From Verrucomicrobiota bacterium (GTDB lineage: Bacteria; Verrucomicrobiota; Verrucomicrobiia; Chthoniobacterales; UBA6821): a DNA stretch of 17,593 nucleotides. Within the stretch, counting starts at the first letter, position 1. Each line of letters begins with the position of its first letter. The stretch is from assembly GCA_008932965.1 (NCBI GenBank), contig WBXG01000036.1, forward strand, positions 1 to 17,593, read 5' to 3'. Of this stretch, positions 1 to 16,338 are shown one piece after another. The notes under the pieces are model-generated. The model saw only the letters and a program-made list of their open reading frames with translations, did not search any database and was not told the DNA's origin. The position numbers and the translations under genes are program-made.

Positions 1-128
1 AGGCAGGCGAGCATTTTGATGCAGGGCTGTATGTGTACATACTGCCCAAATCAAAATGGGAGTCTAACGCAGCATCTATCTGACTTCCCGGCTTCCGTAG
101 TAGATCAGTATGAAATATTCGGGCTAGC
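1..128 (+). mobile_element. palindromic MITE-like element, copy A (long form; left part cut by the window edge)
   Basis: Aligns base for base with the right half of copy D (6300-6434). The right terminus gatcagtatgaaatattcgggcta ends at about 127. Strand is defined relative to copy D. Confidence 0.85.
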
Positions 129-838
129 TCTCCAGGAGACTGTGGTGCAGGAGCTGTTATTGAAACCAAACAAGTAAACTCGGTATGATGGCGTTCCTGG
201 TCCGGAAGCGCTGCTGGTGATGCAACCGTAATGGAAACTACTGCTAGACCAGGAAAGAGAGCTCTAGCAATGGTAATAGAGGCTAGTGATACTATATTTT
301 TTCCTCTCAATGGATTCCGTGACTCTGCCAAGCTCATTTCGCTTACTGGTATTCCACACGCATCATAGGCGACAACATGCTTAGATGGAGTTGAGAGCTC
401 TACCCTAATGCAGTGACTGGCATGGTCCATCCAGTCAGAAGAGAGGGCAATCACTCCATTCGGAGAGGTGGCTCGGAGTGTCTCTATAATCCGTTGAGCA
501 ATAAAGATCGCATTCTCCTTTTGCTCCACTTCAAGACTCATGCGTTGAGCAGCAGGCCAGAGATAAAGCATCCCCAGAAGGATAATAGCAAGGAGGCTCA
601 AAGCGACGAGCACTTCTAACAAAGAGAAGGCTAACCCGCATATTTCATACTGATTCTGCTGCGGCTTGCGAACACCTGATGGATACTGCGTCAGCTTCGA
701 ATTGCTCCTCGGGCAGTATGAAACATACAGCCGTCGTCGCAATCCATCACCTTCCTTGTCTGCATCAGGATTAGCGGCGCCTCGCGACGAACCAGTATGA
801 AATATGCGGGCTAAAGAGAGTTCATTTCTTAGGAGCAT
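1..838 (-). CDS. prepilin-type N-terminal domain protein (type II secretion / type IV pilus minor-pseudopilin-like); partial, 3' end beyond the window
   Basis: Absent from the supplied ORF track because there is no stop in the window. My hand translation of the minus strand from ATG 838..836 is stop-free down to base 2. An in-frame stop lies just upstream at 853..851. It contains FSLLEVLVALSLLAIILLG, a prepilin-type hydrophobic helix with Glu at +5. Two repeat-element copies (631-814 and 1-128) sit in frame inside it. Confidence 0.55.
   Translation of the reverse strand, partial: MLLRNELSLARIFHTGSSRGAANPDADKEGDGLRRRLYVSYCPRSNSKLTQYPSGVRKPQQNQYEICGLAFSLLEVLVALSLLAIILLGMLYLWPAAQRMSLEVEQKENAIFIAQRIIETLRATSPNGVIALSSDWMDHASHCIRVELSTPSKHVVAYDACGIPVSEMSLAESRNPLRGKNIVSLASITIARALFPGLAVVSITVASPAALPDQERHHTEFTCLVSITAPAPQSPGELARIFHTDLLRKPGSQIDAALDSHFDLGSMYTYSPASKCSPA
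631..814 (-). mobile_element. palindromic MITE-like element, copy B (short form, 180 bp TA to TA)
   Basis: Terminal inverted repeats are ctaacccgcatatttcatactg (631-652) and cagtatgaaatatgcgggctaa (793-814). It is the same length as copy C and collinear with it apart from small compensating indels. The flanking TA dinucleotides are at 632-633 and 812-813. Confidence 0.85.
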
Positions 839-961
839 CCAAGCCTCATATCAGAACGAACCTGCTATTTCAATTTCAAAACGTGTATGGAAAGAGAAAA
901 TCTCATTCAACAGAAGTGCTTTTCACGTTTTTAGGTTAAAATTTTATTGGCGGAACTCTTG

Positions 962-3685
962 CTACTTCCATTCGTGTTTGGGATAGCGACGTGAAAGTTC
1001 TCCTCGAAGCTTGGGATAGGTCTCCTTCCAAAAAGAATTCAAATCAGAGGTGATTTGTATAGGACGTTTATTAGGAGCACATAATTCCAATATGACAGGG
1101 GCTCGATTACCGGCAAGAGGGGGGATCTTAGTAACTCCAAAGAGCTCTTGGATCAAGGCCTTAAGGATCACTTCACCGGTTGGTTTATAGCGTAGGCGTG
1201 CCTTACGTCCTGAGGGAAGGGGGTAAAATATGGGGGCATGTTTATCAAGGGCATGACGCTGAGCTGATGATAAGAGCATTTCAAGGGCTGCAATAACGGG
1301 TCGATCCTTGACTTCTCGGTAACTAACGGCTCCCTCACACCATCGTTCGAGGGCCCTTAAACGATCCTTCTGAGTCCATGTCGGTAATGCTAACTCTGGA
1401 TAAAAATGAACAACCCACCTAAGACGATCGACCCAAACATCAACCTCATCTCCCCAGGTAGGAAGCGGAAGATCTCCTTGAGCTAGCGCTTCAGCAAGAA
1501 CATGGCTTGCTTCTAGGGAGGGGGGAGCATCCTGCTGTATCGATTCTAATACAAGATCACGATAGATTTTCTCTTTTTTCCATACAACACGGTTTATGGA
1601 GGTATCAAAAAATAATTCTTTAGTCTCATGAAAATCGTTCGGAAAGAGATGTCGTAACATCGATTCATCAACGGCTGTTGCCATCGAGAGTTGGGTGCGG
1701 ACCTCGCCGCTTCCCTGACCAATTTCAGTGATTTCAGCAGCCACAAAAAGTCGACTCGAAGCAGCAGCACTCTCTTTAACTAAAAGGCCACGTCGTCCAT
1801 GAACGACATCTGAGAGATTTGTTCCTGCTCCACGTCGACGTGCTACTTGATCGGCAAATCCAAGAAGAATACATTGAGCAATCAGATCGTCAGAGGCAGG
1901 AGCGGTCTGCGTGTCAAGTCCTTGGGCATGTGCGAGGGAGCAAAATTGTTCAAAGATACGATTGGTTTGTCGTGCAGCATCAGCGTGGATAGCATATTTG
2001 CGGCACGAATCAGAGCGAAACTCATGACGCTTAGCCCAAGAAAAAACTCGGGAGAGAACAAGAAAATCGGAGGTCCCCCCTTCAAAAAGCTCCTGACGTT
2101 CTTCTTCGGTTTTTTTATCAGTTCTTAAAAGCAATGGACGAGATTGTGTGAGGGCTGCCATCAGGGCAATACTGCGAACACAGCCATATTCCTCGGCTGC
2201 TAAGAGCATCCGTGCGTAGCGGGGATGTGTTGGAAATGAGAGCATCCGTTTTCCTAGAGGGGTAATATTTTCCTGGAAATCAAGAGCTCCTAAATCCTTG
2301 AGAAGCTGCGATGCTTTTCCAAGCGCCTGCTCTTCTGGCTTGTCAAGCCACGCCATGGTTTCTATTTGAGAAAAATTCATAGCCTTGAGTGTTAGCAAGA
2401 CTTCTGATAAATCGACGCGTAGAATTTCTGGTGCTTCACGTGCAGGACGTCGTGCCTGATCCCGCTCTGTCCAGAGTCGAAAACAGTGACCAGGAGCAGT
2501 CCTTCCAGCTCGGCCTGCACGTTGATCTGCAGAGGCTCGACTAATTTTTTCAATGAGTAAGGTATTCATCCCACGTCGAACATCGAAACGAGCCATACGG
2601 GCAAGTCCGGCATCGACTACCCCAGTCACCCCATCGATAGTCAGGGAGGTCTCTGCAACATTGGTGGTAACAATAACCTTGCGGGCCTCTGTTGCTGTTA
2701 CAGCCGCGTCTTGATCGGCAGGAGAGAGTTCTCCATGCAAGGGAAAAAGAAGAATGGAGGAGGAGAGCTGAGATCGCAGGAGGTTAATAGTTTTTGAAAT
2801 TTCATAGGCCCCTGGCATGAAGACGAGGAGATGTCCAGAAGTGAGGTGAAGTAATTTCTCGACACCCTCGGCAGCCAGGTCCCACGGTTTTTCTCCTTCG
2901 GATTCACGGGTGAGGTAGTGAAATGTTACAGGATGAGTTCTTCCCGAGGAGCGAATTACCTCACATGGTTCTAAATAATCTGCCAAGGATGCGGTATCCA
3001 ACGTAGCCGACATCACGATGATTTTTAAATCAGGGCGATGATTTTTTTGTAATAGGAGTGCCTGCATCAAGCTGATATCGCTGTAAAGATGGCGTTCATG
3101 GAATTCATCAAAGAGCAAGGTGCTAACTCCCTCAAGATACGGATCAGTGAGCATTTGACGCATTAAGATTCCTTCAGTGACAAAGAGAAGGCGTGTGGAT
3201 GAACTGCATTGTTCATCATGACGGATGCGATACCCCACCTCATCACCCAGTCTTCCTTCTCTCTCCTGAGCAACACGGGCAGCAAGCATACGAGCTGCTA
3301 AACGACGTGGTTGCAAAATCATGGCTTTTTTCGATCCTAATATTCCACCATCAAGAAGCATTTGTGGAATCTGTGTCGATTTTCCAGATCCAGTGGGAGC
3401 CTCTACAATAAGACGGTTGCTAGCACTTAGGGTTGTTACGATTGATTCACGTAATTCCTCAATCGGAAGAGCACTGGGAGTTAACCCGGATATTTCATAC
3501 TGATCTACTACGGAAGCCGGGAAGTCAGATGGATGCTGCGTGGAGTTCGAGGTCTTCCTCGAGTAGTCTGTACACACACAGCCGTCGTCAGACTTCATCG
3601 CTCGCCTTGCCTCATCAGCCTTCACAGCCTCCTGGTCAAGATCAGTAGGAAATATCTGGGTTAATGAAAATTGAGAATGTGCCAT
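962..3685 (-). CDS. hrpB: ATP-dependent RNA helicase HrpB (DEAH-box family)
   Basis: 907-aa ORF. Motifs: APTGSGKST (Walker A), DEFHER (motif II), SATL, TNVAETSLTIDG, QRAGRAGR. The C-terminal tail ...SFWKETYPKLRGELSRRYPKHEWK matches the tail I remember from E. coli HrpB. Codons 9-68 are contributed by repeat copy C. Confidence 0.9.
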   Translation of the reverse strand: MAHSQFSLTQIFPTDLDQEAVKADEARRAMKSDDGCVCTDYSRKTSNSTQHPSDFPASVVDQYEISGLTPSALPIEELRESIVTTLSASNRLIVEAPTGSGKSTQIPQMLLDGGILGSKKAMILQPRRLAARMLAARVAQEREGRLGDEVGYRIRHDEQCSSSTRLLFVTEGILMRQMLTDPYLEGVSTLLFDEFHERHLYSDISLMQALLLQKNHRPDLKIIVMSATLDTASLADYLEPCEVIRSSGRTHPVTFHYLTRESEGEKPWDLAAEGVEKLLHLTSGHLLVFMPGAYEISKTINLLRSQLSSSILLFPLHGELSPADQDAAVTATEARKVIVTTNVAETSLTIDGVTGVVDAGLARMARFDVRRGMNTLLIEKISRASADQRAGRAGRTAPGHCFRLWTERDQARRPAREAPEILRVDLSEVLLTLKAMNFSQIETMAWLDKPEEQALGKASQLLKDLGALDFQENITPLGKRMLSFPTHPRYARMLLAAEEYGCVRSIALMAALTQSRPLLLRTDKKTEEERQELFEGGTSDFLVLSRVFSWAKRHEFRSDSCRKYAIHADAARQTNRIFEQFCSLAHAQGLDTQTAPASDDLIAQCILLGFADQVARRRGAGTNLSDVVHGRRGLLVKESAAASSRLFVAAEITEIGQGSGEVRTQLSMATAVDESMLRHLFPNDFHETKELFFDTSINRVVWKKEKIYRDLVLESIQQDAPPSLEASHVLAEALAQGDLPLPTWGDEVDVWVDRLRWVVHFYPELALPTWTQKDRLRALERWCEGAVSYREVKDRPVIAALEMLLSSAQRHALDKHAPIFYPLPSGRKARLRYKPTGEVILKALIQELFGVTKIPPLAGNRAPVILELCAPNKRPIQITSDLNSFWKETYPKLRGELSRRYPKHEWK
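3481..3664 (-). mobile_element. palindromic MITE-like element, copy C (short form, 180 bp TA to TA), inside the hrpB 5' coding region
   Basis: TIRs are ttaacccggatatttcatactgatc (3481-3505) and gatcagtaggaaatatctgggttaa (3640-3664). The TA dinucleotides are at 3482-3483 and 3662-3663. It aligns with copy B directly, and with copies A and D as its reverse complement. Confidence 0.9.
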
Positions 3686-3724
3686 GATGTATTAAATCAA
3701 CATTGTTATTTTTATCCTAGAAAA

Positions 3725-3744
3725 TGTGAAATATTCGGGCTAGC
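3725..3744 (+). repeat. solo terminus of the same element family
   Basis: tgaaatattcgggctagc (3727-3744) is identical to the terminus of copy A at 111-128. I found no partner end or internal element sequence next to it. Confidence 0.6.
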
Positions 3745-3778
3745 GCAAATATTGCATGATCTGTTATTTTGTACCGTT

Positions 3779-4636
3779 ATGTTGATCTCGCTAAGAACAC
3801 TTTCCATTTTTCTTTTCCTTGTTCAGCTGGGTTATGCCTTTGGTTCCAAAAAAAATAGCCCTCCTTCGTCTTTGAATACCGGTCAAATGCAAGGAGCTCT
3901 TTATGTCGATGCACTTAGTGTTCCCTCCCCTGGAGAATTTTTTGCCTCCATCAATAAGGTGAGTCGACCCAATTGGACAACATTAGATCATGGAGGCAAT
4001 GCTCCCGTAACAACCAATCGTGCTCAGCTTGCTCTGGCTATAGGGGTTTTTGTTACCAATGGTTTTATTGCCGTAGAGGCTCAGGATGGACAACAGGTGA
4101 AAAATATGGGGCGTGATATGATGGCACTCTCTAAAGCCTTAGGAGTGAGTCAAACTATTCTAAGTCGAGGTAATAACCTCGTCGATTTTGCTGATGATGA
4201 TCAATGGGATCCCCTGCGTAACGAGCTGGAAGCCACAGAAAATGAAGTGAAGAGTACGATGCTAGGTCAACAAGATCACTATCTCATTACATTAATCTCT
4301 GCAGGGTCCTGGTTGAGGGAGATCGAGATTGCCTCTGAAATTATTGTGAATCACTACTCGCAACGTGGAGCTGCTCTTCTTCAAGAGCCAGCCTTGGCAT
4401 TCCACCTAGCCTCCGAATTAGAATCACTCCCAGAAAAATTACGCACCGATCCCTTAGTGCTCAATGTCAAAGAGACCTTGAATCATTTAGCAACACTTCA
4501 AAAAAAGGAACCCTATGGTTTAACAAAAGAGGATCTTGGGGTTTTGCAATTAGAAATCAAAAAAATAGTTGCTTCCATTAGCGCTTCCGATGCATCTCCT
4601 CTTTCCTCAAAACCTGCTTTACCCCCTGCTTTATGA
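3779..4636 (+). CDS. hypothetical secreted/envelope protein with an N-terminal signal peptide
   Basis: The ORF track gives 3671..4636. I prefer the in-frame ATG at 3779 because MLISLRTLSIFLFLVQLGYAFGS looks like a signal peptide, and the upstream extension is read through a repeat remnant (RKCEIFGLA). I recognise no family motifs. Confidence 0.6.
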   Translation: MLISLRTLSIFLFLVQLGYAFGSKKNSPPSSLNTGQMQGALYVDALSVPSPGEFFASINKVSRPNWTTLDHGGNAPVTTNRAQLALAIGVFVTNGFIAVEAQDGQQVKNMGRDMMALSKALGVSQTILSRGNNLVDFADDDQWDPLRNELEATENEVKSTMLGQQDHYLITLISAGSWLREIEIASEIIVNHYSQRGAALLQEPALAFHLASELESLPEKLRTDPLVLNVKETLNHLATLQKKEPYGLTKEDLGVLQLEIKKIVASISASDASPLSSKPALPPAL

Positions 4637-5106
4637 TGAAAAAAATAGTGTATCTTTTCCTAGGATTGTTGGTGGCTACAATCCCATCCCAAGCTGGAGA
4701 GAGGCCCTTTGCTCTCTCTGATAATGTTGCCGTGGCCAAAGAAAATGGACGCCGGCTCGCACAGGCTATAACCCATGATGGATTTCGAGTCAGAGAGAGT
4801 GATTGGGTTGTTTCTTTAAAACCTCAAGAGCCTCATCTCTTACGGGTAACCTTGTTTGCAGGAAATCAATATTGGTTTATTGCTGCAGCCTCTCCTCCTG
4901 CTCTCGTGCTACTAATAACCTTGTACGATAGCACAGGCAAGCCGATCAAAGGCGATCGCCTCAAAGAAGAGCCTGCTGTTTCTGGTGCTAGAACTGCAGT
5001 AGGGCTCACCGCTCCTCACAGCGGCAACTATTTTGTCAAATTAGAATTATTGAAATCTCAAGGAAAGCTACCCGCCGAGACCTACCTCGCCTATGCCTAT
5101 AAGTAG
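4633..5106 (+). CDS. hypothetical small secreted protein (signal peptide, probably beta-rich)
   Basis: 157-aa ORF. The N-terminus MMKKIVYLFLGLLVATIPSQAGE is signal-peptide-like. Its ATG overlaps the upstream stop (ATGA at 4633-4636), which implies translational coupling with 3779..4636. Confidence 0.6.
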   Translation: MMKKIVYLFLGLLVATIPSQAGERPFALSDNVAVAKENGRRLAQAITHDGFRVRESDWVVSLKPQEPHLLRVTLFAGNQYWFIAAASPPALVLLITLYDSTGKPIKGDRLKEEPAVSGARTAVGLTAPHSGNYFVKLELLKSQGKLPAETYLAYAYK

Positions 5107-8100
5107 AGAGCTTGTGTATCCGGGTTAACCCGATAGAGGCTTGGAATCACTGCTGCGGCCATCGTGTCAATAGGGAGCTCTCTTTTTAGAAAATGAGCAA
5201 TGGAACGGGCTGCTTGATGGGGGTCTTGAACTACAGAACTATACTCTAAGCAAAGAAGAGGCCAGTTAGCATGATCAATATGCTCTGCCATCGTGATTTC
5301 GTAATGGCGATAGACGTTATAAAGCTGATCTACTGTTGCAATCGACCCAGCCATACGATGTTGTGATGTGATTACCTCCTGAAGAGAGCGGCGCATCCAA
5401 ATGATCCTATAATGGTTCTGTGCGGGGAGATTTAAAGCGAGAGGGATGACCACTTTGGTAGCTCTTCCGGCTTTGAGAAAGAAGGCTTCTTGTGACATTG
5501 TTTTCACCTTCTCGTGTTCAAAATACCCATTGGGATTATGTTCATCAGGGCAGCGATGATAATCTGTATTAATGGCGATCCCGCCTGCTGCGAGCATCTG
5601 CATCATCAATGATGTTCCAGAGCGAGGGAGTCCAGTCACAATAATAGGTCCCTGATTTGAGGAAAGCCTTGAGGAGCGCTTAGGGGAAAGCTTGGTGGAA
5701 AGCTTGGGGGAAATCCTCAAGGAAGATTTTTTTTGGAGAGAAGAAATTTTTTTTATAGGAGATGAATGAAATCCAAGAGCGCTCTGCAAATTTATTTTTG
5801 CCTTCTCTGACTCACAATGATACTGCAAGGCTTGACTTGGATTATTTTTTCCATCCAACGCAATATGAGCAAGAAGTCTGAAAGCATCACTGCGATAAAG
5901 AAAGCTCTTTGAGGCCTCCTGAGCTGCTTTCCAAGCAGCACTCCAGCGACCTTGATGTGAGAGTGAGGTGGCTAATGCAAGCCAAGAAAAACGATGTAAT
6001 GGATTTCGAAGGATCGCCTCACGGGCACATTCTTCTGCCTCAAGAGGCTTCTTTTTTTTATTATAGTAGATTGCTAAGAACGCTAGTGCATCGGCCTCCT
6101 CGTGGCGTACCTTGGCAACATTGCGCAGGAGGGCAACACCTTTTTTCTCCGTGCGATAGGCTAACCCGGATATTTCATACTGATCGTGTCGAGGGAGCTG
6201 AGAAGGTTGATGGGGCACCACCGGCGGTCGGGAGACCGCAGGGGGACTGCCGAAGACTTCCTTTAGGCAGCCCTGAAAGGACGAGAGGAGTGGGAGCGAG
6301 CGAGTCAACGCAGACACGTATTTTGACGCAGGGCAGTAGGAGTGCATACTGTCCATGTCAAAATGGGAGTCTAACGCAGCATCCATCTGGTTTTCCGAAC
6401 TCGGTAGGTGATCGGTATGAAATATCCGGCCTAGGGCAAAGAGGCCTGCATTGAACTGTGCAGCACTATCCTCAGGATGTGCATGGGCATAGGTCAGTAG
6501 TAATTCAAGATCCTCGCTTTTGGAATGAGCCAAAAAGCGAGCTGAAGTTGCTATGAAGTTAATTTTCTCTTCATCAAGAGTAGCACGTGCCATCAGATGA
6601 CGTATCTCCCAAGCTTCTTGAAAAGAAATAGTTTTATTGGTAGAGGAATCTGCTTTTTCCCAAAATTGTCGTAGCGCTTGTTTGGCATCACGTCGACGAT
6701 AGCGTGCAATGTGATAAAAACATGTTGCAGCACGACGCCTTTCTCCCACAAGAAGGTAAGCTGTTGCAAGTTCCTCTAAGATGTCCGTCCGTAATAAAGC
6801 CTGTCCTGCTTTTCTTGCAGCACTACGGGCCTGTTCTAAAAGAGGAATTGCCTGATCAAGACGATCATCATGAAGAAAGGAGAGTGCAAGGTGAAAGATC
6901 TCATTGCAGTGAGCCTCTTGAATAGCTGCCTGTTTATTGAAGGGAATTTCTTGTAAATAACCCAGAGAGACCAGTTGACGTAATGCTGCTTCTGTAGATT
7001 CTGGGGAGGGGGTTGAGGGGCTCCAAGGAGCTTTCCAAAAGCCGTCCCACGAACTAATTTTTTTGATAATTGGTTTTTTAGAAAAAGATTTGAGAAGTAC
7101 TTTTCCAGGCATATCCCTTCCTATTGGCAACCCTGCAATTGCAAGTAATGTGGGGCAGAGATCCAAAATAGTGGCATGATGGATAGCAGCTCCTTGGCGT
7201 ATTTGTGTTCCCTTCATGATGAGCGTCCCGATAGGGGCATGCTGATGCGTTGGTGCTGTCTCTTGAATTCCTAAAGAGCTTGGTCTGCGAGCATCATGAT
7301 AAAACCCATGGTCTGATGCGATCACAATGGTAGACTCCTCTCCAGCAGCTTCTACGAGCTCTCCAATCCATCGATCATAGAGTTCATAAGCGCGATCTAC
7401 CACTTCTCCATAAAGTTCACAGTCGCGTGGTTTTTCTCCAGGCAATGCAGGTTCTCGGTAACACATGGCCAAATGAGAGAGACTATCAAGCCCCACGAGA
7501 TAAAGAGAGGTAAGATCCTGCCTTTTCCTCCTCATCAAGTGCAAGGTCACTTGGAGTGTGGTGAGATCCTCTGCAAGAATTTTAGCAATAGCAGCTACTC
7601 TGAAATCGGTGGTGGGATCAATTTCATAAAGTTTGGGAACGAGGAAGCGCAGGAGCGCTTCAGACAATTGCTGAGGATGTACACGGTCTTGTGCAATTAT
7701 TTTAGAAAGGGACCATGGAGAGACACTTTTAGGGGGAATGCTCCATGGTTCATGGGAGGGATGATGAGCGATACGAAATGTTTCATCGATCATAGCCCCT
7801 CTGATTTTTTCAGCAGGAGCAGTTGTCCACCATCCCACTATGGTGGACGTTTTTTTATAATGAGAGAACATATTCCAAATCGCTGGAGAGCGTCGTGAAG
7901 TCCTATCATAAGGCCTCAAGCCCATTCCCGAATGATCAGCATAGGTAAACCCAGTAATTCCATGTTCATAAGAGTGCTTTCCGGTTCCTATTGTTGCCCA
8001 AAGTGCTGGTGAGAACAGGGGAGAAATCGATCTTAATGGACCGCTGACACCATGGGTAACCATCTTTGATAGATGAGGTAATTTTCCGGCAGCGATTTTT

Positions 8101-8216
8101 AAAGAGAGTAACTCCCAGTCAGCAGCATCTAATCCGATAAAAAGAATTGGTGACATAAAAAGAAGAGGTGTTTTTATATGATTGCGAAGAAATTTTCTAT
8201 CTTCTATATTCACCAC
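5097..8216 (-). CDS. tri-domain protein: alkaline-phosphatase-superfamily (type I phosphodiesterase/nucleotide pyrophosphatase-like) domain + TPR repeats + C-terminal sulfotransferase domain
   Basis: 1039-aa ORF. The N-terminus LFIGLDAADWELL...GKLPHL...SPALWATIGTGKHSYEHGI and IASDHGF are typical of AP-superfamily phosphodiesterases. The middle is helical and TPR-like. The C-terminus has GLPRSGTSL (5'-PAPS-binding loop) and IIWMRRSLQEVITS (3'-phosphate-binding motif) of sulfotransferases. The GTG at 8216 is the maximal start. The ATG at 8156 (MSPILFIGLD...) is probably the real one. Repeat copy D is in frame within the TPR region. Confidence 0.75.
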   Translation of the reverse strand: MVNIEDRKFLRNHIKTPLLFMSPILFIGLDAADWELLSLKIAAGKLPHLSKMVTHGVSGPLRSISPLFSPALWATIGTGKHSYEHGITGFTYADHSGMGLRPYDRTSRRSPAIWNMFSHYKKTSTIVGWWTTAPAEKIRGAMIDETFRIAHHPSHEPWSIPPKSVSPWSLSKIIAQDRVHPQQLSEALLRFLVPKLYEIDPTTDFRVAAIAKILAEDLTTLQVTLHLMRRKRQDLTSLYLVGLDSLSHLAMCYREPALPGEKPRDCELYGEVVDRAYELYDRWIGELVEAAGEESTIVIASDHGFYHDARRPSSLGIQETAPTHQHAPIGTLIMKGTQIRQGAAIHHATILDLCPTLLAIAGLPIGRDMPGKVLLKSFSKKPIIKKISSWDGFWKAPWSPSTPSPESTEAALRQLVSLGYLQEIPFNKQAAIQEAHCNEIFHLALSFLHDDRLDQAIPLLEQARSAARKAGQALLRTDILEELATAYLLVGERRRAATCFYHIARYRRRDAKQALRQFWEKADSSTNKTISFQEAWEIRHLMARATLDEEKINFIATSARFLAHSKSEDLELLLTYAHAHPEDSAAQFNAGLFALGRIFHTDHLPSSENQMDAALDSHFDMDSMHSYCPASKYVSALTRSLPLLSSFQGCLKEVFGSPPAVSRPPVVPHQPSQLPRHDQYEISGLAYRTEKKGVALLRNVAKVRHEEADALAFLAIYYNKKKKPLEAEECAREAILRNPLHRFSWLALATSLSHQGRWSAAWKAAQEASKSFLYRSDAFRLLAHIALDGKNNPSQALQYHCESEKAKINLQSALGFHSSPIKKISSLQKKSSLRISPKLSTKLSPKRSSRLSSNQGPIIVTGLPRSGTSLMMQMLAAGGIAINTDYHRCPDEHNPNGYFEHEKVKTMSQEAFFLKAGRATKVVIPLALNLPAQNHYRIIWMRRSLQEVITSQHRMAGSIATVDQLYNVYRHYEITMAEHIDHANWPLLCLEYSSVVQDPHQAARSIAHFLKRELPIDTMAAAVIPSLYRVNPDTQALYL
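6161..6434 (+). mobile_element. palindromic MITE-like element, copy D (long form, 270 bp TA to TA), inside the tri-domain enzyme CDS
   Basis: TIRs are ctaacccggatatttcatactgatc (6161-6185) and gatcggtatgaaatatccggcctag (6410-6434). The TA dinucleotides are at 6162-6163 and 6432-6433. The ends align with copies A, B, C and E. It carries about 90 bp of extra internal sequence compared with B and C. Confidence 0.9.
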
Positions 8217-8230
8217 GCCAATGAAATAGT

Positions 8231-9364
8231 ATGCACGTAATTTCTTTTCTTGAACACCTTTGGTTAGAAAATTCTCATATAAAATTGGGCTGTGTTGATG
8301 TCTTTGAAGCAGGTAAAGGATATCTTTTTGCGGACAAACAGTTCGATAAGCTCAAAGAATGGGATCTCTCCATTCCCTTTGAAAAGGTTTCTAAAGTAGA
8401 ACCGATGTTCAAACCGATGCGTTATTCCGAGCATGGGCCTAAAGGAAAAGTGCTCATTTATAACGGTGTCGGAGGTATGGGTGACCAAATTATGACATGG
8501 CCATTAGCAAAAATTCTTGCTGATCGGGGCTATGAAGTACACATCCTCTCAGAACACCATTTAGCAATGTTTTGGTATGGCTTTCCATGGATTAAATCAA
8601 TTCTAATTTTACCCTGCTACTGGTCTGTGCTCGAGAACTTCGACTACCATCTTAATTTAGAATATATTTCCAATGGCTATGCACATAGTGATCAGATGCA
8701 ACCAATCGATCTTATGCTTCAACTATGTGGGATTGATCCTGAATCGATTCCAGATGAAGAGAAGCGTCTTGCCCCTCGATTTACGAAAATGGAAATGGGA
8801 ATTTCCCAGACTCTCTACTCTAACAGGCGTTTAGGTTTTTACCAAATCGCGTGCTCTCAACAAATACGTTCCTTGCCTCCTGAACTGAGTCGCCGTGTTT
8901 TTAAAGCGCTTGCAGAGGCTTTTCCTAATATTTACTGGATCGGTCTCTATGGACCTCTAGAATCCTCCGAATATTGGCTTAACCCTCTGGGACCATCCAA
9001 TGCTGAATTTCGTTCCTTTGAGCGGCCTCGGCTGATGTGGTCAATGATTCAACGAGCAGAGATTTGTGTTGCCCCCGACTCGATGCTTGTTCATATGGCA
9101 GGTGTTTTAGATAAGCCTTGTGTTGGTTTGTGGGGGCCCTATGGACCAGAATCACGTGTAAAATATTATCCCAACCATTATCCGATTCATCACAAAGCAG
9201 TATGCCCTCTGTCGCCGTGTCATTGGAATGCTGTTCAAATGCCACATATCTGTCCTCCAACAGAAAAACCATTAGATCGATGCCAAGTAATGCTTCAAAT
9301 AACCCCTGAAGAAGTTGTTGAGGCAGTGCGTCAGCTTGTTCCATCTTTGGAAACAATGAAGTAA
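8231..9364 (+). CDS. glycosyltransferase family 9 (heptosyltransferase-like)
   Basis: 377-aa ORF. KVLIYNGVGGMGDQIMTWPLAKILADRGYEVHIL resembles the GT9 N-terminal (I/L)GD motif region. APDSMLVHMAGVLDKPCVGLWGPYGPE resembles the GT9 nucleotide-sugar-binding motif (NDSGxxHLAAAxGxPxVxLFGPT). The Cys-containing tail ...CQVMLQITPEEVVEAV is also GT9-like. The start is uncertain; in-frame Met codons at 8405 and 8417 are alternatives. Confidence 0.75.
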   Translation: MHVISFLEHLWLENSHIKLGCVDVFEAGKGYLFADKQFDKLKEWDLSIPFEKVSKVEPMFKPMRYSEHGPKGKVLIYNGVGGMGDQIMTWPLAKILADRGYEVHILSEHHLAMFWYGFPWIKSILILPCYWSVLENFDYHLNLEYISNGYAHSDQMQPIDLMLQLCGIDPESIPDEEKRLAPRFTKMEMGISQTLYSNRRLGFYQIACSQQIRSLPPELSRRVFKALAEAFPNIYWIGLYGPLESSEYWLNPLGPSNAEFRSFERPRLMWSMIQRAEICVAPDSMLVHMAGVLDKPCVGLWGPYGPESRVKYYPNHYPIHHKAVCPLSPCHWNAVQMPHICPPTEKPLDRCQVMLQITPEEVVEAVRQLVPSLETMK

Positions 9365-9470
9365 AAGAAAGTTTTGACAACGCTTACCGTTGTGATCAAT
9401 AAAATGTGATGTATTGCAGTTAAATTTTTTTCTCAGGTGATTCCAACCTAAAACCAAATCGTGATTTGCG

Positions 9471-9905
9471 ATGAATATAAAAAACCAACCTACTGCTCAG
9501 CAAGACATCACTATTTCTAGTCGACAGCTCGAGTCTCTTTATGCACTTGGCTTTGAGCTTTATGGTGCAGGAGAATTTGAAAAAGCTGCGGATCTATTTC
9601 GACTCCTATGCTTGTACGACCCAGAAAAGTCACGCAATTGGATTGCTCTTGGTGGAGCTAATCAACAGAGGGGAGAATATCAGTTAGCCATTGCTGCTTT
9701 TGTGATGGCCTCGTTTCAGGAACCCCTGAGTCCTGAACCAAGATTATATGCAGCTCATTCCTTTATTGATCTTATGGATTTGTCTGCAGCGTTGGAGGCC
9801 ACCAAACAGGCATTAGAACTTTGTGAAAAGCGAGATGATAAAAAAGAAGTCCAATCCCGAGCCGCTTCCTTATTACAAGCACTTGAGTCTTATACCCAAA
9901 AGTAA
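9471..9905 (+). CDS. type III secretion class II chaperone, LcrH/SycD/CesD family (TPR)
   Basis: 144 aa. LESLYALGFELYGAGEFEKAADLFRLLCLYDPEKSRNWIALGGANQQRGEYQLAIAAFVMAS...PEPRLYAAHSF matches, position by position, the Yersinia SycD sequence as I remember it (LEQLYSLAFNQYQSGKYEDAHKVFQALCVLDHYDSRFFLGLGACRQAMGQYDLAIHSY...PRFPFHAAEC). Size and TPR layout also fit. Confidence 0.75.
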   Translation: MNIKNQPTAQQDITISSRQLESLYALGFELYGAGEFEKAADLFRLLCLYDPEKSRNWIALGGANQQRGEYQLAIAAFVMASFQEPLSPEPRLYAAHSFIDLMDLSAALEATKQALELCEKRDDKKEVQSRAASLLQALESYTQK

Positions 9906-9923
9906 AATCACTGAAATACTACT

Positions 9924-10880
9924 ATGAGCAATGCATCACCTGTTCCTTCCGGACAATCACCTAGTCCTGCACCATTATCTACTCCTGATGTAAATGATAG
10001 ACAACAGCAGCTCTCTGGCCAGGATGTCTTAAGTGATCAGAAAGCGCCAGAATCTGTCTCAAAAAAACCAAATCTTACTCAGATTTCGAATGTCCCTGGA
10101 TCATTAAATGATGTCTATAACAGCTCTATAACTCATCTACCAGACCCCTCGTTAACACTGAGTGGAGAAGATATTATAAGTTTATCAGTATGGAGCAACG
10201 ATTCTCTTAATAGTGATGGAACTCAAGCAGCTAACAACACTGCTGCATCTGGTATCCTGGCAATTCAAGAGGTATGTCTTCAAAATCAGAAGCGTATAGA
10301 AGTTAACTATAATGACCCTGGGGCGACTCATCAAGATGTAACCCCTCAATTTCAGCAAAAAATAGGTGCTCAGAAAAAAGGTGTTACCCTGCCTTCTGTT
10401 CCTCCAACAGCCAATAGTCCGCTTCCAGGTCATCAACTATTGAAATTACTAAATAACTATATTTCTCAGAAAAGCTCTGGGACTCTTTCCATCTCTACAT
10501 TTAGCTCCTCACAAATAATCAGTAGTGAACTATACTTAGATCTACTAATAGGAGAGTCTAATAATCAGTCTTCGCTTAATAGCCTCAACGTTCAAACAGC
10601 AAGTCAAAGGCATGTTAGTTCAAAGAGGATGCTAGATTCGGAAGGTAGCATGAAAAGTGCTGTTTCTGAGCATTCTAAAACTGATAGCAGAGGAGCTGCA
10701 AAACAGATTGAATCATCCTCCTTTTCTACTACTCAATCTTTGAAACGAGGTTCTGCTGCTGGCTCTCCAGCTACTACTTCAGTAAACCCAATAAACGTTT
10801 CACAAGCTTTAAAAAAAGGCTTTGGAACTCTTTCAATAGTAACGGCTCAACTTCGCCCCAAGCCCTTAGGGCCTACCTAG
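9924..10880 (+). CDS. Ser/Thr/Asn/Gln-rich low-complexity protein; candidate type III secretion substrate
   Basis: 318-aa ORF starting 19 bp after the chaperone gene on the same strand. The N-terminus is Ser/Pro-rich and looks disordered (MSNASPVPSGQSPSPAPLSTPD...). I see no obvious transmembrane helix and no recognisable catalytic motif. Confidence 0.55.
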   Translation: MSNASPVPSGQSPSPAPLSTPDVNDRQQQLSGQDVLSDQKAPESVSKKPNLTQISNVPGSLNDVYNSSITHLPDPSLTLSGEDIISLSVWSNDSLNSDGTQAANNTAASGILAIQEVCLQNQKRIEVNYNDPGATHQDVTPQFQQKIGAQKKGVTLPSVPPTANSPLPGHQLLKLLNNYISQKSSGTLSISTFSSSQIISSELYLDLLIGESNNQSSLNSLNVQTASQRHVSSKRMLDSEGSMKSAVSEHSKTDSRGAAKQIESSSFSTTQSLKRGSAAGSPATTSVNPINVSQALKKGFGTLSIVTAQLRPKPLGPT

Positions 10881-10926
10881 AAATTGAAAAATTCATTTCT
10901 TTAATAGGAGAGAAAAAAGAGATGCC

Positions 10927-10962
10927 TAGCCCGGATACTTGTAGTAGCCCGGATACTTGTAA
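10927..10962 (+). repeat. tandem duplication of an 18-nt unit resembling the element terminus
   Basis: tagcccggatacttgtag (10927-10944) is followed directly by tagcccggatacttgtaa (10945-10962), 17/18 identical. The first 14 nt match the family terminus tagcccgaatattt at 12/14. Confidence 0.6.
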
Positions 10963-11152
10963 ATGTCATTTTATAACTCATGAAAGCCCCTTGTGATCGT
11001 GCCTAGAAGGAAATAATGTTTTTTCAAGTTCGGAATTTAAGATGAAGTTCGAGTAATAAACACAACACTGTTTTTTATCTTTCTTAGTTTTTTGTTGCTC
11101 TTATGAGCAATCTATGGAATGTTCATCGCCTCACTTTTATTTTTTATCTTTC

Positions 11153-11470
11153 ATGTCTTACGCAATTATTAAAACAGGTGGCAAACAGTACCGTGTTACC
11201 GAGGGTGATATCCTTGATGTTGAAAAACTCGATATTGAGCCAGGACAGTCGACCACCTTTAGTGATGTTCTTATGGTTGCTGATGGAAGTAATGTAACCT
11301 TTGGTTCTCCTTTTATTGCCAGTGCTTCTGTGCAAGCTGAGGTTGTCGATCAATGGAAAGGTGAAAAAGTCATTGCTTTTAAATTTCGACGTCGTAAGGG
11401 ATATCATCGAACAGTGGGCCATCGTCGTCGTCTCACTAAACTCAAAATTACTTCGATTTTGAGTAAATAA
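11153..11470 (+). CDS. rplU: 50S ribosomal protein L21
   Basis: MSYAIIKTGGKQYRVTEGDILDVEKL... and ...FKFRRRKGYHRTVGHRRRLTKLKI are canonical L21 sequence. The ORF-track start at 11114 adds 13 unlikely residues, so I chose the ATG at 11153. Confidence 0.9.
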   Translation: MSYAIIKTGGKQYRVTEGDILDVEKLDIEPGQSTTFSDVLMVADGSNVTFGSPFIASASVQAEVVDQWKGEKVIAFKFRRRKGYHRTVGHRRRLTKLKITSILSK

Positions 11471-11509
11471 TTAACTCTCTTTTCAATTTAGTTAACTTCA
11501 ACTTATTTT

Positions 11510-11761
11510 ATGGCTCATAAGAAAGGTCAAGGAAGCGTCAAAAATGGACGCGATAGTCAAAGCAAACGACTCGGTGTAAAAAAGTTTGGTGGTGAATCTG
11601 TCATTGCTGGTAATATCATTATTCGCCAACGTGGTACTAAGTTTCTTCCAGGTCGCAATGTTGGTCTAGGGCGTGATTACACCATTTTTTCACTAGTTGA
11701 TGGTAAAGTCCTCTTTGATCGTGCAGGTCGACGCGTTAATGTAGAGCCCGTTTTAGTATAG
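11510..11761 (+). CDS. rpmA: 50S ribosomal protein L27
   Basis: [29 protein letters not shown]...[32 protein letters not shown] is canonical L27 sequence. It starts 39 bp downstream of rplU. Confidence 0.95.
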
Positions 11762-11899
11762 TTGTACGACCCAACCGTTCGATTGTTACCTTACTGTTCA
11801 GAGGTAAGAAAGCACTCAAAAGAGTTCTTTTTTTGAAGACTCATTTTGCTTTTTGACTTTAGATGGCTATCCCATGCTGATCTCGCTGTTTGTATAGTC

Positions 11900-12198
11900 T
11901 TTTACACGAATATTCCATGCTCCATCTATTACATATTATGGAAAGCTCTATGGCTACTGCGTTGTTCTTGAATTGTAATTTGGAGAGGGCACTTCACATA
12001 CAACCTGGCGTCAAACTTCTCATCTGCATTAACTCGCTCGCACCCACTCGTCTCACCCTTACAGGGCTTCCTAAGAGGCTTCCTAAAAGTCTTACTAAGG
12101 GGCAGTCTCTCCCCCCCCCGCGGTTTCCCGACCGACGGTGGTACCCCATTTGATTCCGCAGCCTCTTCGTCACGATCAGTATGAAATATGCGGGTTAA
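11900..12198 (-). mobile_element. palindromic MITE-like element, copy E (long form, intergenic, one end decayed)
   Basis: Its reverse complement aligns along copy D, from ttaacccgcatatttcatactgatcgtgacgaagaggctg... through ...gggtgcgagcgagttaatgcag. The intact terminus is at 12174-12198. The other end (about 11899-11922, cttttacacgaatattccatgctc) is degenerate. It contains a C9 run at 12111-12119. Confidence 0.75.
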
Positions 12199-12257
12199 AT
12201 TGAAAAGGGTAGGTAACAAGCCTCCCTTTTGCCCTACGATTCCACACAACTATACCC

Positions 12258-12869
12258 TTGAAGCAAGTTACTCCACTTAAGCTCGCTATCTTAGGTTCAG
12301 GCAAGGGCTCTAATGCACGAGCCCTCATTGAAGCATCGAAGCAATCCAAGCTGTACTATGAAACCGTTCTTCTCATTACGGATATTCCCCATGCTGGGAT
12401 ATTAAGGTTAGGTGAGGAATTTCAAATCCCTGCTTATTTTTTTAGCCCAGGTCCATTTAAAACCAAATTTGCACCGGAGCGTGAACAGGAGCTTGTCACC
12501 CTTCTTCGCGAAGCCAAGGTCGATTTTATCGCTCTAGCAGGATTCATGAGAGTGATTAAGGAACCCCTTCTTGCTGCATTTCCAAAACGTATTTTAAATA
12601 TTCACCCTTCGCTCTTGCCGCATTTTCCAGGACGAGAAGCATGGGAGCAAGCCATCGATGCAGGAGCTCGTGAAAGTGGTTGTACGGTTCACCTGGTGGA
12701 TCACGGTATTGACACTGGGGAGATTTTAGGACAGGAATCTGTACCTATTTTTCAAAATGACACAGCTAATACTCTTCATCTCCGGATTCAAGAGGCTGAA
12801 CACAGGCTCTATCCTTGTATTGTGAATACTGTTGCAAAAACGCTTTTACAAAAAAAGAGTCATTATTAA
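12258..12869 (+). CDS. purN: phosphoribosylglycinamide formyltransferase
   Basis: LAILGSGKGSNARALIEA, ALAGFMRVI, NIHPSLLPHFPG and GCTVHLVDHGIDTGEILGQ are the PurN formyltransferase motifs. The start is TTG at 12258. Confidence 0.9.
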   Translation: MKQVTPLKLAILGSGKGSNARALIEASKQSKLYYETVLLITDIPHAGILRLGEEFQIPAYFFSPGPFKTKFAPEREQELVTLLREAKVDFIALAGFMRVIKEPLLAAFPKRILNIHPSLLPHFPGREAWEQAIDAGARESGCTVHLVDHGIDTGEILGQESVPIFQNDTANTLHLRIQEAEHRLYPCIVNTVAKTLLQKKSHY

Positions 12870-12920
12870 AACTCAATCCCAAAGTTGAGAATGGTAATTT
12901 TAGAATTTTAAACCTATTTC

Positions 12921-14915
12921 ATGTCTCGTTTTCGTCTTTTTGATCTCAACCCTGAGCAATACCGCGCTGCAACTCATCCCGAAGGAGCACTACTCATTCT
13001 AGCTGGAGCAGGAACAGGTAAGACCCGTGTTCTCACGGCACGAATCGCCTGGCTTGTATCCCAAGGAGTTGATCCTAGCTCGATCTTGGCAGTAACCTTT
13101 ACGAATAAAGCAGCGCGAGAAATGAGGGAACGAATCACTACGATTCTTGGAGCTGAAAAAACAAAGGCCATGACCCTTTCTACGTTTCATTCCCTCTGCG
13201 TTCGCCTCTTGAGGCGTGATGCCCCCCTTCTAGGATACAAAGAAAACTTTAGTATCATGGATGAATCAGACCAAATGGGATTGATTAAAAAAATAGCCGG
13301 TCGCATTCATGATTCTCAAGATCCGATCAATCCTGAGGGCGCACGCGCCATGATCAGCAAGGTTAAAAATCTTTCTGCATCAACAAGCACCATGTCAACA
13401 GCAGTAGAGAGCCTTTTTACTCGGTATCAACAAGAGCTACGGTCACTTAATACAATGGATTTTGATGATTTGTTGCTTTATGCCCGTGAACTGCTTGTGG
13501 ACCATGAAGCGGTACGCCTCTTTTGGCAACAGCAGTACCGCTACATTCTCATTGATGAATTCCAAGATACGAATAAGCTTCAGCTCGATTTCATGAGCCA
13601 ATTGGTTGGTAAGCAGATGAATCTTTGTGTTGTTGGAGATGATGATCAAAGTATCTACGGGTGGCGAGGTGCTCAACGTTCTAATCTACTTGAATTGGAA
13701 CGTTATTTTTCTAATCCCGAAATCATTAAACTCGAGCAAAACTACCGTAGTACGCATCTTATTCTTTCGGCTGCCAATCGACTGATTCAACACAATGCCC
13801 ATCGCTACGAGAAAAATTTGTGGAGTGATCAAAAAGAGGGAGATCCTATCCGACTCCTAAGTAGCGCTGATGATATGACTGAGGCAGAATTTATAGCTGA
13901 TGAAATAAAGGCCCTCGGTTCTGAGAAATGGGATCACAGTGCCATCCTCTATCGTATGAATGCACAATCACGCATCTTTGAAACCATGCTGCGAGAAAGA
14001 AAGATTCCTTATCGTGTCGTGGGTGGAAAAAGTTTTTTTGACCGTCGTGAAATACGTGATGTCATGGCTTATCTCACCGCCCTGCTCAATCCTGATGATG
14101 ACAATGCACTCTTAAGAGTTTTGGCTGCTCCTCCACGTGGTATTGGAAAGGTAACATTACAACTTTTACTTGAAACTTCCATTAAACAAAAATCTTCTTT
14201 CTCCTCAGTGATCCTAGATCCAGAGCAACGTCATGATTGCTCGACAAAAACTGCTGAAGCTATCGTACGCTTTGCTGAGGATTGGGGTGCCTACCAAATT
14301 CGTTTACAAACACCGGGCCAGGATCCTGCAATGTTACTCGATGAAATATTGAAAGAATGTGGCTACAACGAAGATTTAAGAAAATCATGTAAAACACCAG
14401 AAGAGGCAGATCAACGAGAAACTAATGTTCGAGAGTTGCTCGAAAGCATGGGTGACTTCTGTCAGAAAAACCGCCGCAATGGAGCTCAACAATTTCTCGA
14501 TACTATGTCACTAGAGAGAGAAAAAGCTGAAGAGAAAGAAGAGCGTCATGGAGTGACTTTGATTACCTTGCATGCTGCTAAGGGACTAGAATATGAATTT
14601 GTCTACCTCGTTGGACTCGAAGATGGACTGCTTCCTCATGAACGCTCTAAAGAGGAAGGAAATATCGAAGAAGAGCGACGACTCTGTTATGTCGGTATGA
14701 CACGAGCCAAAAAAAAATTAACGATGACTTATTGTCGTACGCGAAAAAAATATGGAACGATTCTCTCCTGTACACCGAGCCCCTTTCTTTTGGAATGTGC
14801 TGGTGAGGGTGTCGAAGAGACAAGTATCGAAGAAATTTTAACCCGCCCCTTAGAAGAAGCCGATGTTAATGATGCCTTTGCCTCGATGCGAGCATTGTTA
14901 AACCTAGAAGAATAA
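12921..14915 (+). CDS. UvrD/PcrA/Rep-family ATP-dependent DNA helicase (SF1)
   Basis: 664 aa. Motifs: AGAGTGKTRVLTARIA (Walker A), ILIDEFQDTN, VGDDDQSIYGWRGA, LEQNYRS, ITLHAAKGLEYEFVYLVG, EEERRLCYVGMTRAKKKL. Confidence 0.9.
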   Translation: MSRFRLFDLNPEQYRAATHPEGALLILAGAGTGKTRVLTARIAWLVSQGVDPSSILAVTFTNKAAREMRERITTILGAEKTKAMTLSTFHSLCVRLLRRDAPLLGYKENFSIMDESDQMGLIKKIAGRIHDSQDPINPEGARAMISKVKNLSASTSTMSTAVESLFTRYQQELRSLNTMDFDDLLLYARELLVDHEAVRLFWQQQYRYILIDEFQDTNKLQLDFMSQLVGKQMNLCVVGDDDQSIYGWRGAQRSNLLELERYFSNPEIIKLEQNYRSTHLILSAANRLIQHNAHRYEKNLWSDQKEGDPIRLLSSADDMTEAEFIADEIKALGSEKWDHSAILYRMNAQSRIFETMLRERKIPYRVVGGKSFFDRREIRDVMAYLTALLNPDDDNALLRVLAAPPRGIGKVTLQLLLETSIKQKSSFSSVILDPEQRHDCSTKTAEAIVRFAEDWGAYQIRLQTPGQDPAMLLDEILKECGYNEDLRKSCKTPEEADQRETNVRELLESMGDFCQKNRRNGAQQFLDTMSLEREKAEEKEERHGVTLITLHAAKGLEYEFVYLVGLEDGLLPHERSKEEGNIEEERRLCYVGMTRAKKKLTMTYCRTRKKYGTILSCTPSPFLLECAGEGVEETSIEEILTRPLEEADVNDAFASMRALLNLEE

Positions 14916-15012
14916 AGAAGATATCCAGAGATAGAGCATGTTCCAAAGTGAACCAGTGTTAAAACTAGATTTTTAGCTCTTCCGGGATCTGTTGCAACTA
15001 CACAAAAAGTAA

Positions 15013-15033
15013 CGGGTGATCGGTATGAAATAG
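15013..15033 (+). repeat. short remnant of the element terminus
   Basis: gggtgatcggtatgaaata matches the right end of copy D (aggtgatcggtatgaaata, 6406-6424) at 18 of 19 positions. The flanking sequence does not align with the element. Confidence 0.45.
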
Positions 15034-15091
15034 GAGAGATCCATGATATTTTTTGTTTTATGTTGGTGAGCCTTCTCATACTGTGAGTCCT

Positions 15092-16282: not shown

Positions 16283-16338
16283 TTCAACTCTCTTCTCACG
16301 GGCTAGATCAGCTCCTCCTATTTACTTAAAAAAACGAA

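Follow-up and report, generated by a model that had tools for sequence, protein, structure and literature searches.

The helicase gene hrpB of an uncultured freshwater Verrucomicrobiota bacterium from the order Chthoniobacterales (assembly GCA_008932965.1) carries a repeated DNA element that lies in frame after the eighth codon and adds 60 codons. The gene lies on contig WBXG01000036.1, which was analysed over positions 1 to 17,593; this whole stretch is referred to below as the window. It is highly probable (about 0.88) that the segment at 3481-3664 is a transposable element of the miniature inverted-repeat type (MITE), that is, a non-autonomous DNA transposon, that it sits in frame in hrpB, that its family is abundant in one lineage of Chthoniobacterales, and that the insert is tolerated and translated. 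The features on which this reading rests are as follows, with copy C denoting the hrpB insert among the copies in the window.

962-3685, minus strand: hrpB open reading frame (ORF), 907 amino acids, for HrpB, an ATP-dependent helicase of the DEAH-box type whose DEAD, Helicase_C, HA2 and HrpB_C domains begin at residue 82
3481-3664, minus strand: MITE copy C, a 176-bp element with both flanking TTAA; one TTAA plus the element is 180 bp, or 60 codons (9-68) in the hrpB frame
3481-3484, unstranded: target-site duplication TTAA on the side distal to the gene start; a 4-bp YTAR direct repeat family-wide
3661-3664, unstranded: target-site duplication TTAA, equal to codon 8 (TTA) and the first base of codon 9
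3485-3505, plus strand: terminal inverted repeat (TIR) CCCGGATATTTCATACTGATC; the gene strand encodes ...DQYEISG
3640-3660, minus strand: TIR CCCAGATATTTCCTACTGATC, with 2 mismatches, encoding TQIFPTD

A 60-codon insertion at the N-terminus of HrpB

Translation of the ORF and a codon listing confirm the proposal of the first-pass annotation, made from the letters of the window, that a 60-codon repeat is inserted in frame at codon 8/9 of hrpB. The protein begins MAHSQFSL, continues with 60 amino acids (TQIFPTD...DQYEISGL, codons 9-68) and then reads TPSALPIEEL...APTGSGKST, without a stop; the sequence directly after the insert is TPSALPIEELRESIVTTLSASNRLIVEAPTGSGKST. The insert lies exactly between codons 8 and 69 and adds 60 residues. 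The exact length given earlier also stands, as the TA dinucleotides at 3482-3483 and 3662-3663 are spaced 180 bp apart and TTAA at 3481-3484 and 3661-3664 brackets the element. The reading as a repeat element is upheld, the insert having inverted termini and a target duplication, and the duplication itself is refined to the 4 bp TTAA, rather than TA. The 21-mer TIR occurs eight times in the window at three or fewer mismatches, against 0.00 expected from 200 shuffles. Copy C aligns with 49 other copies of 180 bp, and it folds into a hairpin of -77 kcal/mol.

A Pfam scan of hrpB recovers all the helicase domains intact, with the DEAD domain beginning at residue 82, and gives no match for the insert peptide. 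In comparison to the solved structure of E. coli HrpB (PDB 6EUD; E = 2.8e-122), the alignment covers query residues 70-906, with residue 70 aligned to chain residue 4. Since homology to this structure begins only at residue 70, the insert occupies what is otherwise the extreme N-terminus of HrpB, which bears out the earlier in-silico excision, after which the distance to the Walker A motif had appeared close to that in E. coli. The 907-residue HrpB, or a variant that differs at a few core residues but not in the insert, is encoded on at least 14 contigs (JGI, NCBI, ENA), and a one-off misassembly is therefore ruled out.

HrpB orthologues and a second repeat family

A protein search with HrpB, judged by the names of the homologues, assigns the gene to Verrucomicrobiota/Chthoniobacterales. 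Two orthologue alignments, one of 24 and one of 118 proteins, show the segment only in the window protein and in P0002 (90% identical), and 116 of the 118 lack it; the orthologue alignment suggested as a check in the first-pass annotation thus yields a precise gap of 60 amino acids. The protein P0003 (83% identical) is 847 amino acids in length, exactly 907 - 60.

P0002 is encoded on L001, a contig from a freshwater metagenome that is syntenic with the window. The hrpB gene of L001 shares the ATG and the eight codons with that of the window; two abutting 180-bp copies come next, which have the middle TTAA in common and are both in frame. These tandem copies (9935-10298) occupy the same TTAA as the insertion in the window and add 120 residues to HrpB. 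In L002, a contig of the metagenome-assembled genome (MAG) Deming_bin.170, the hrpB site is empty. An empty hrpB site was also sought at the DNA level in P0003, P0004 and P0005, whose N-termini are too diverged for base-level alignment; in P0005, a TTAA is present three codons away.

Five further in-frame inserts occur at other positions of HrpB, in P0076, P0006, P0071/72, P0070 and P0073. They are members of a second, unrelated repeat family, which likewise forms hairpins but has different termini (approximately AGACCCCTTTCAAAACTCGCTGCTGC), is found in other Chthoniobacterales lineages, is inserted in both orientations, and also occurs elsewhere in the same MAGs. In one orientation, this family encodes RPLSKLAA...AVEFS. 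Across the HrpB orthologues overall, there are six independent in-frame insertions from two repeat families. Three of the second-family inserts were delimited on their contigs:

L089, 3136-3285: second-family insert in the hrpB of orthologue P0073
L090, 11216-11362: second-family insert in the hrpB of orthologue P0070
L091, 3272-3460: second-family insert in the hrpB of orthologue P0006

Additional copies of the second family were seen in L043, L086, L088, L051 and L060.

The element family across genomes

One genome per species was scanned for exact matches to CCCGNATATTTCATACTGAT, which gave at least 86 stretches. Nearly all of the matches listed fall in four MAGs of the Chthoniobacterales/Spartobacteria, namely Kiruna_bin-02438, Tobar2m-G38, Deming_bin.170 and SMAG_U8253. 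With a copy defined as a convergent pair of TIRs less than 600 bp apart, the loci examined (0.66 Mb) contain at least 120 paired copies, distributed over the four MAGs and two metagenome contigs. The most common length is 180 bp (50 copies), and a second class measures 261-299 bp.

Identical 4-bp flanks are present at 76 of the 120 copies, comprising TTAA (39), CTAG (23), CTAA (11) and TTAG (3). Because CTAA is not palindromic, the eleven CTAA/CTAA copies establish a duplication of 4 bp (YTAR) and not of TA. A TA duplication of the IS630-like type was considered and rejected, as it would need element ends that co-vary with the flanks and cannot explain these eleven copies. In both L001 and L002, the site corresponding to another copy in the window (copy D, described below) is empty and reads GCC TTAG AAC. 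The family therefore has the TIRs, conserved across the 120 copies, the target duplication with empty sites in relatives, the small size without a transposase ORF and the many dispersed copies by which MITEs are recognised.

The consensus folds into a long hairpin (-97 kcal/mol). In its 180-bp form, the consensus has exactly one stop-free frame per strand, and the other four frames are closed, first by TAA and TGA in the inverted repeat. The sense strand reads LTRIFHTDRDEEAAKADG...SAVDQYEISGL and the antisense strand LTRIFHTDQLRRPGSQMDAALDSH...PRHDQYEISGL. Of the 240 strand-readings that the 120 copies provide, 97 have an open frame 0, compared with 7 of 480 for the other frames.

Selection on the helicase and structure of the insert

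The core of hrpB differs between the window and L001 with dN 0.048, dS 0.62 and an omega of 0.078 over 839 codons, with no stop or frameshift. For the insert, compared with the element at the same site in L001, omega is about 1.0-1.2. This difference indicates that the helicase is under strong purifying selection, whereas the insert peptide is unconstrained.

A structure prediction, which had been proposed earlier as a check, models residues 1-70 as a disordered tail. With 118 aligned sequences, AlphaFold assigns a predicted local distance difference test score (pLDDT) of 23-35 to residues 1-70 and of 85-95 from residue 71 onward. Along with the blank Pfam result in the insert and a DEAD domain that starts at residue 82, this model supports the insert being a disordered N-terminal tail in front of an intact RecA-like core.

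The start codon of hrpB

Two ATG codons could begin translation of HrpB in the window, and a third feature lies in the promoter region:

3683-3685, minus strand: upstream ATG start, conserved in L001; the encoded MAHSQ resembles MNHTQ of insert-free P0004
3596-3598, minus strand: element-internal ATG at codon 30, preceded by GAGGCAAGGCGAGCG; the NCBI start, giving 878 amino acids
3717-3743, unstranded: remnant of a copy, CTAG + AAAATGTGAAATATTCGGG + CTAG, with a 13-nt TIR end and 6 nt (19 bp) between the two CTAG, in the hrpB promoter region

The codon listing agrees with the earlier observation that no in-frame start separates the element from Walker A: there is no ATG, GTG or TTG from codon 69 to that motif (codons 96-104), and the next is the ATG at codon 109. 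Element sequence must therefore be translated, and the claim that it enters the protein from either start holds. Whichever start is used, the conserved N-terminus of the helicase comes after 39-69 residues, no fewer than 39 of which are encoded by the element.

One alternative is that the element itself supplies the start. According to this view, both transcription and translation of hrpB would begin within the MITE at the codon-30 ATG, the MAHSQFSL codons would go unused, and the protein would carry 39 element residues. The ATG at 3598 lies directly behind GAGGCAAGGCGAGCG, which places a Shine-Dalgarno-like AAGG/GAGG stretch 6-12 nt upstream, and this arrangement is common to copy C and both copies in L001. 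The NCBI annotation of the window contig (KAB2643680.1, P0123) begins HrpB at this codon, with 878 amino acids, and the gene caller for L001 likewise placed the start at the ATG within copy 1; the JGI call uses the upstream ATG and gives 907 amino acids. In addition, one ORF in L041 can begin only within the element.

Set against these points, the upstream ATG, the eight codons that follow it and the 91-bp promoter region (3686-3776, 94.5% identical) are conserved between the window and L001, and the frame from this ATG is open across one element copy in the former and two in the latter. The N-terminus obtained by excision, MAHSQFSLTPSALPIEEL, resembles MNHTQPPSSIPSALPIEEL of insert-free P0004 (MAHSQ versus MNHTQ), for which reason the ATG at 3685 is probably the ancestral start. 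The sole promoter-like match on the hrpB strand (3730-3702) is also upstream of this ATG; it is not above chance, and its -35 element overlaps the remnant at 3717-3743. As insert-free orthologues likewise have no Shine-Dalgarno sequence, its absence at the ATG at 3685 tells little. On balance, a start supplied by the element is unlikely, while remaining the most serious competitor of the upstream ATG.

The remnant itself, 32 bp upstream of the ATG at 3685, is conserved in L001. It looks like a copy of the element that has been almost fully deleted.

In-frame copies in other genes

Copies of the family are in frame in many genes besides hrpB. Among the 120 copies, 23 (about 19%) are in frame within an ORF that has 200 or more flanking codons, 14 in the sense and 9 in the antisense orientation, and about 14 of the 23 have 40 or more codons on each side. 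The host genes recognised by NCBIfam include those for GlnD (with two copies), PheT, PriA, Dxr, AroD, MalQ and two permeases, one LivM-like and one FtsX-like. For PheT and Dxr, the curated cut-offs are passed by two stretches that flank the insert. The PheT insert (L026, 3792-3975) is in frame and follows the N-terminal tRNA-binding domain.

The window holds four other copies of the family:

1-127, minus strand: MITE copy A, a long form cut by the start of the window, with target-site duplication CTAG at 124-127, in frame near the C-terminal end of a prepilin-type ORF
631-814, minus strand: MITE copy B, 180 bp, with target-site duplication CTAA, in frame in the leader peptide of the prepilin-type protein ORF
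6161-6434, minus strand: MITE copy D, a 270-bp long form of 90 codons, a precise in-frame insert with the element in the orientation opposite to copy C
11999-12198, unstranded: truncated MITE copy E, which has a single TIR (12174-12194) and TTAA (12195-12198), intergenic between rpmA and purN

The prepilin-type ORF that contains copies A and B (1-849, minus strand) runs off the start of the window. Around copy B, the window protein reads MLLRNELS, the element and then LAFSLLEVLVAL, and the insert-free orthologue in L002 reads MKLRSIQAFSLLEILVAL. Copy B is located two residues before the AFSLLE cleavage motif, in which cleavage falls after the A; the L002 orthologue lacks both copies A and B. 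The copy B insert may be clipped off together with the leader.

Copy D interrupts a gene for a 1039-residue phosphodiesterase/TPR/sulfotransferase protein (5097-8216). Copy D is missing from the L001 orthologue of this sulfotransferase gene (5506-8505), in which the low-complexity linker ahead of the sulfotransferase domain contains two different extra segments of approximately 30 residues each (alignment columns 858-942). Two ORFs that run across copy E (11890-12153, plus strand, and 11929-12249, minus strand) are probably artefacts of the open frame of the element.

Proposed course of insertion

In the favoured explanation, a transposase supplied in trans would have inserted the element into the TTAA at codon 8 of hrpB, duplicating 4 bp. 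Element and one duplication amount to 180 bp, or 60 codons, keeping the frame, and the element is stop-free in the frame that enters via the inverted repeat (TTA ACC CGG ATA TTT CAT ACT GAT = LTRIFHTD ... DQYEISGL). Owing to the 60-codon length and the stop-free frame, the reading frame continues into an intact helicase. Translation would most likely begin at the original start codon (ATG at 3685), with the ATG of the element (codon 30) as the alternative, and the product would be a HrpB with an unstructured N-terminal tail of 39-69 residues and an undisturbed RecA-like core. The insert would be tolerated rather than useful, a neutral passenger at the protein level.

The same reasoning could extend to the family as a whole. 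One in three insertions into a coding TTAA/YTAR site, in either orientation, would leave the host frame intact. Insertions in the other two frames would meet TAA or TGA in the inverted repeat, and their truncated products would be purged. The survivors in a gene-dense genome would be those in the permitted frame, and the length of the element with its one open frame per strand would let the family persist in genes.

A more ambitious proposal is tentative, with the odds somewhat against it. At least two MITE families of this Chthoniobacterales lineage would be specialised for life in genes through a length that, duplication included, is a multiple of the codon, a stop-free frame on each strand and stops in the TIRs, and conversion or selection on nucleotides would keep their copies more alike across lineages than neutral sites are. 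They would then form a second counterpart to the Rickettsia palindromic elements (RPEs), independently evolved and mechanistically tractable, and would steadily supply essential proteins with new disordered tails and linkers.

Points that weigh against the favoured explanation

Several points count against a translated MITE insertion in hrpB, or against parts of that account. No parent transposase with matching ends was found in the 0.66 Mb of loci. Assemblies of MAGs usually lose copies of insertion sequences (ISs). Only two TIR pairs in these loci are more than 600 bp apart, and each was rejected as an autonomous element: the pair in L057 (2263-6056) encloses an aminopeptidase-like protein and other ordinary genes, and the one in L069 overlaps the region of the PriA gene. 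IS5-group and IS701-family elements (ISfinder) make 4-bp duplications at YTAR-type sites (TTAA, CTAG, CTAA, TTAG), and by these rules on target duplication the mobilising enzyme would be of the IS5-group or IS701 type. That the insert is translated, and from which start codon, is inferred from the sequence. Furthermore, the excess of open frames over the expectation under random substitution is inflated by variants shared within sub-families, and some in-frame copies near 5' ends (e.g., that in MalQ of L041) may precede the true start and not be part of the protein.

The divergence of the insert presents a further difficulty. Compared with its counterparts in L001, the insert has diverged by 10-12% at all codon positions (88-90% identical), with a dS of about 0.11, and the adjoining synonymous sites of hrpB have diverged by 42% (58% identical), with a dS of 0.62. 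Similarly good conservation between the two contigs is seen for copy A (about 88% identical) and for the 91-bp promoter region mentioned above. To judge from these sequence comparisons, simple neutral decay of a single ancestral insertion does not fit, as it would predict a much greater divergence of the insert. Three candidate explanations are gene conversion among the genomic copies, which number more than 100, a constraint that acts on DNA or RNA and not on protein, and re-insertion at the regenerated TTAA with replacement of the old copy.

Abutting copies with a single shared 4-bp duplication are common in the family:

L001 9935-10298, L016 5242-5689, L021 2927-3389, L046 6496-6867, L084 6791-7138 and L088 7083-7543: abutting copies

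This suggests preferred insertion at the YTAR beside an existing copy, or tandem duplication. An alignment of the 50 copies of 180 bp, drawn from the window and L001-L087 (alignment A5), separates at least three sub-families and includes mosaics of left and right halves (e.g., L009, L047 and L033), suggesting that recombination or gene conversion has occurred between copies. RNAalifold, applied to the 50 copies, retains only the TIR stem and a hairpin in the centre, and its covariation term is -2.4 kcal/mol; with so little covariation, this result does not decide among conversion, constraint and re-insertion. No claim of selection on the hairpin structure is drawn, as the mosaicism of sub-families blurs the middle of the element.

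Other readings of the insert

The 60 residues might instead be an old functional module at the N-terminus of HrpB, or a protein domain acquired by shuffling, with the other DNA repeats as its copies. The reading frame is indeed open in most copies, even outside long ORFs, and the nucleotides of the insert are better conserved than the neighbouring synonymous sites. The segment is nevertheless missing from nearly all HrpB orthologues, its omega is about 1, and its peptide is predicted to be disordered and has no Pfam match. In other genes, the opposite orientation gives an unrelated peptide (copy D, PheT and the LivM-like permease), and many copies are intergenic. The inverted termini and 4-bp target duplications are, moreover, marks of transposition. 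A protein module is largely refuted by this combination and is very improbable.

An equally remote idea is that the insert is removed after transcription or translation, as a self-splicing intron, an intein or a programmed bypass, leaving a mature HrpB without the 60 residues. The very stable RNA hairpin would bring both TTAA junctions together, which could in principle favour excision or bypass. On the other side, an Rfam scan of the window, group I and group II introns included, gave no match, and the peptide, which begins TQIF and ends ISGL before a T, has neither a Pfam or intein match nor intein junction residues. If the insert were removed, the gene-embedded copies would also have no need of a length that is strictly a multiple of 3, or of a stop-free frame.

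The least probable reading, that hrpB is a pseudogene or that the insert is an assembly artefact with a coincidentally open frame, draws on the frequency with which MITE repeats produce errors in metagenome assemblies such as the one that contains this contig, and is countered by the low omega of a core free of stops and frameshifts, by the complete set of helicase domains, and by the recovery of the insert allele from independent sources and of insert copies at the same site in a 90%-identical relative.

Significance

With a translated MITE as the favoured reading of the insert, the six independent hrpB insertions from two families can be regarded as a natural experiment on the positions of a protein that tolerate 45-90 extra residues. 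They also call for caution in gene calling, as the start of HrpB is disputed on one and the same contig (907 versus 878 amino acids) and inserts of this kind inflate the apparent novelty of metagenome proteins. The interest of the system is moderate to good, since the phenomenon is both frequent and open to mechanistic analysis.

Comparison with known repeat systems

The IS5-group and IS701 elements are alike in their 4-bp YTAR-type duplication, and no full-length IS with the termini of the family was found in the loci examined. Among non-autonomous repeats, QMITE1/2 of Coxiella (PMC5896051) and the ERIC, BOX and Anabaena MITEs (PMC10969869) form occasional in-frame gene fusions. Similar to the Chthoniobacterales family, they have TIRs, direct-repeat flanks and a hairpin core, and some copies extend or interrupt ORFs in frame. 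In those systems, internal in-frame insertions are exceptions that mostly affect hypothetical proteins or gene ends, whereas about one fifth of the Chthoniobacterales copies are in frame in a long ORF, essential enzymes included. A paper on Thiomargarita MITEs contains no in-frame cases, and a literature search for MITEs in Verrucomicrobia, Chthoniobacter and Chthoniobacterales found nothing relevant.

The closest parallel is provided by the RPEs. These are described as palindromic repeats of 100-150 bp that abound both between genes and within coding sequence and that have entered unrelated genes in frame, PheT among them (PMC1779305; PMC10969869, citing Ogata et al. 2000 and 2002). Both systems consist of short (100-180 bp) palindromic interspersed repeats that are found between genes and often in frame within unrelated housekeeping genes, that add a peptide compatible with the host protein, and that comprise several families per lineage. 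PheT is a host in both; in all Rickettsia, PheT is reported to carry an in-frame insert derived from RPE-7 (PMC1779305). This coincidence may reflect a tolerant surface loop.

The two systems differ in their hosts and in their structure. RPEs reside in obligate intracellular Alphaproteobacteria, whereas the family described here is hosted by Verrucomicrobiota from environmental metagenomes (freshwater in the case of L001). Unlike RPEs, this family has clear 21-nt TIRs and a 4-bp YTAR duplication, as in a classical MITE mobilised by a transposase, and it has one stop-free frame on both strands and occurs in genes in both orientations. Exact matches to the TIR include none in Rickettsiales among those listed from the scan of at least 86 stretches. 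The Chthoniobacterales family would not be filed as an RPE by membership, given that no sequence relationship is apparent (as judged from terminal-repeat matches only), that its host belongs to another phylum and that it has TIRs and a target duplication. In its behaviour, it is RPE-like, as a palindromic repeat that is recurrently in frame in unrelated genes without destroying them; this follows from the 23 in-frame copies, the purifying selection on hrpB and the six HrpB insertions.

The in-frame habit of selfish repeats has previously been documented at scale mainly in Rickettsia, and a 2024 review treats in-frame colonisation of genes outside this genus only as "conceivable" (PMC10969869). 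The Chthoniobacterales elements represent a second abundant system, in a different phylum, whose TIRs, YTAR duplications and empty sites allow insertion to be studied directly.

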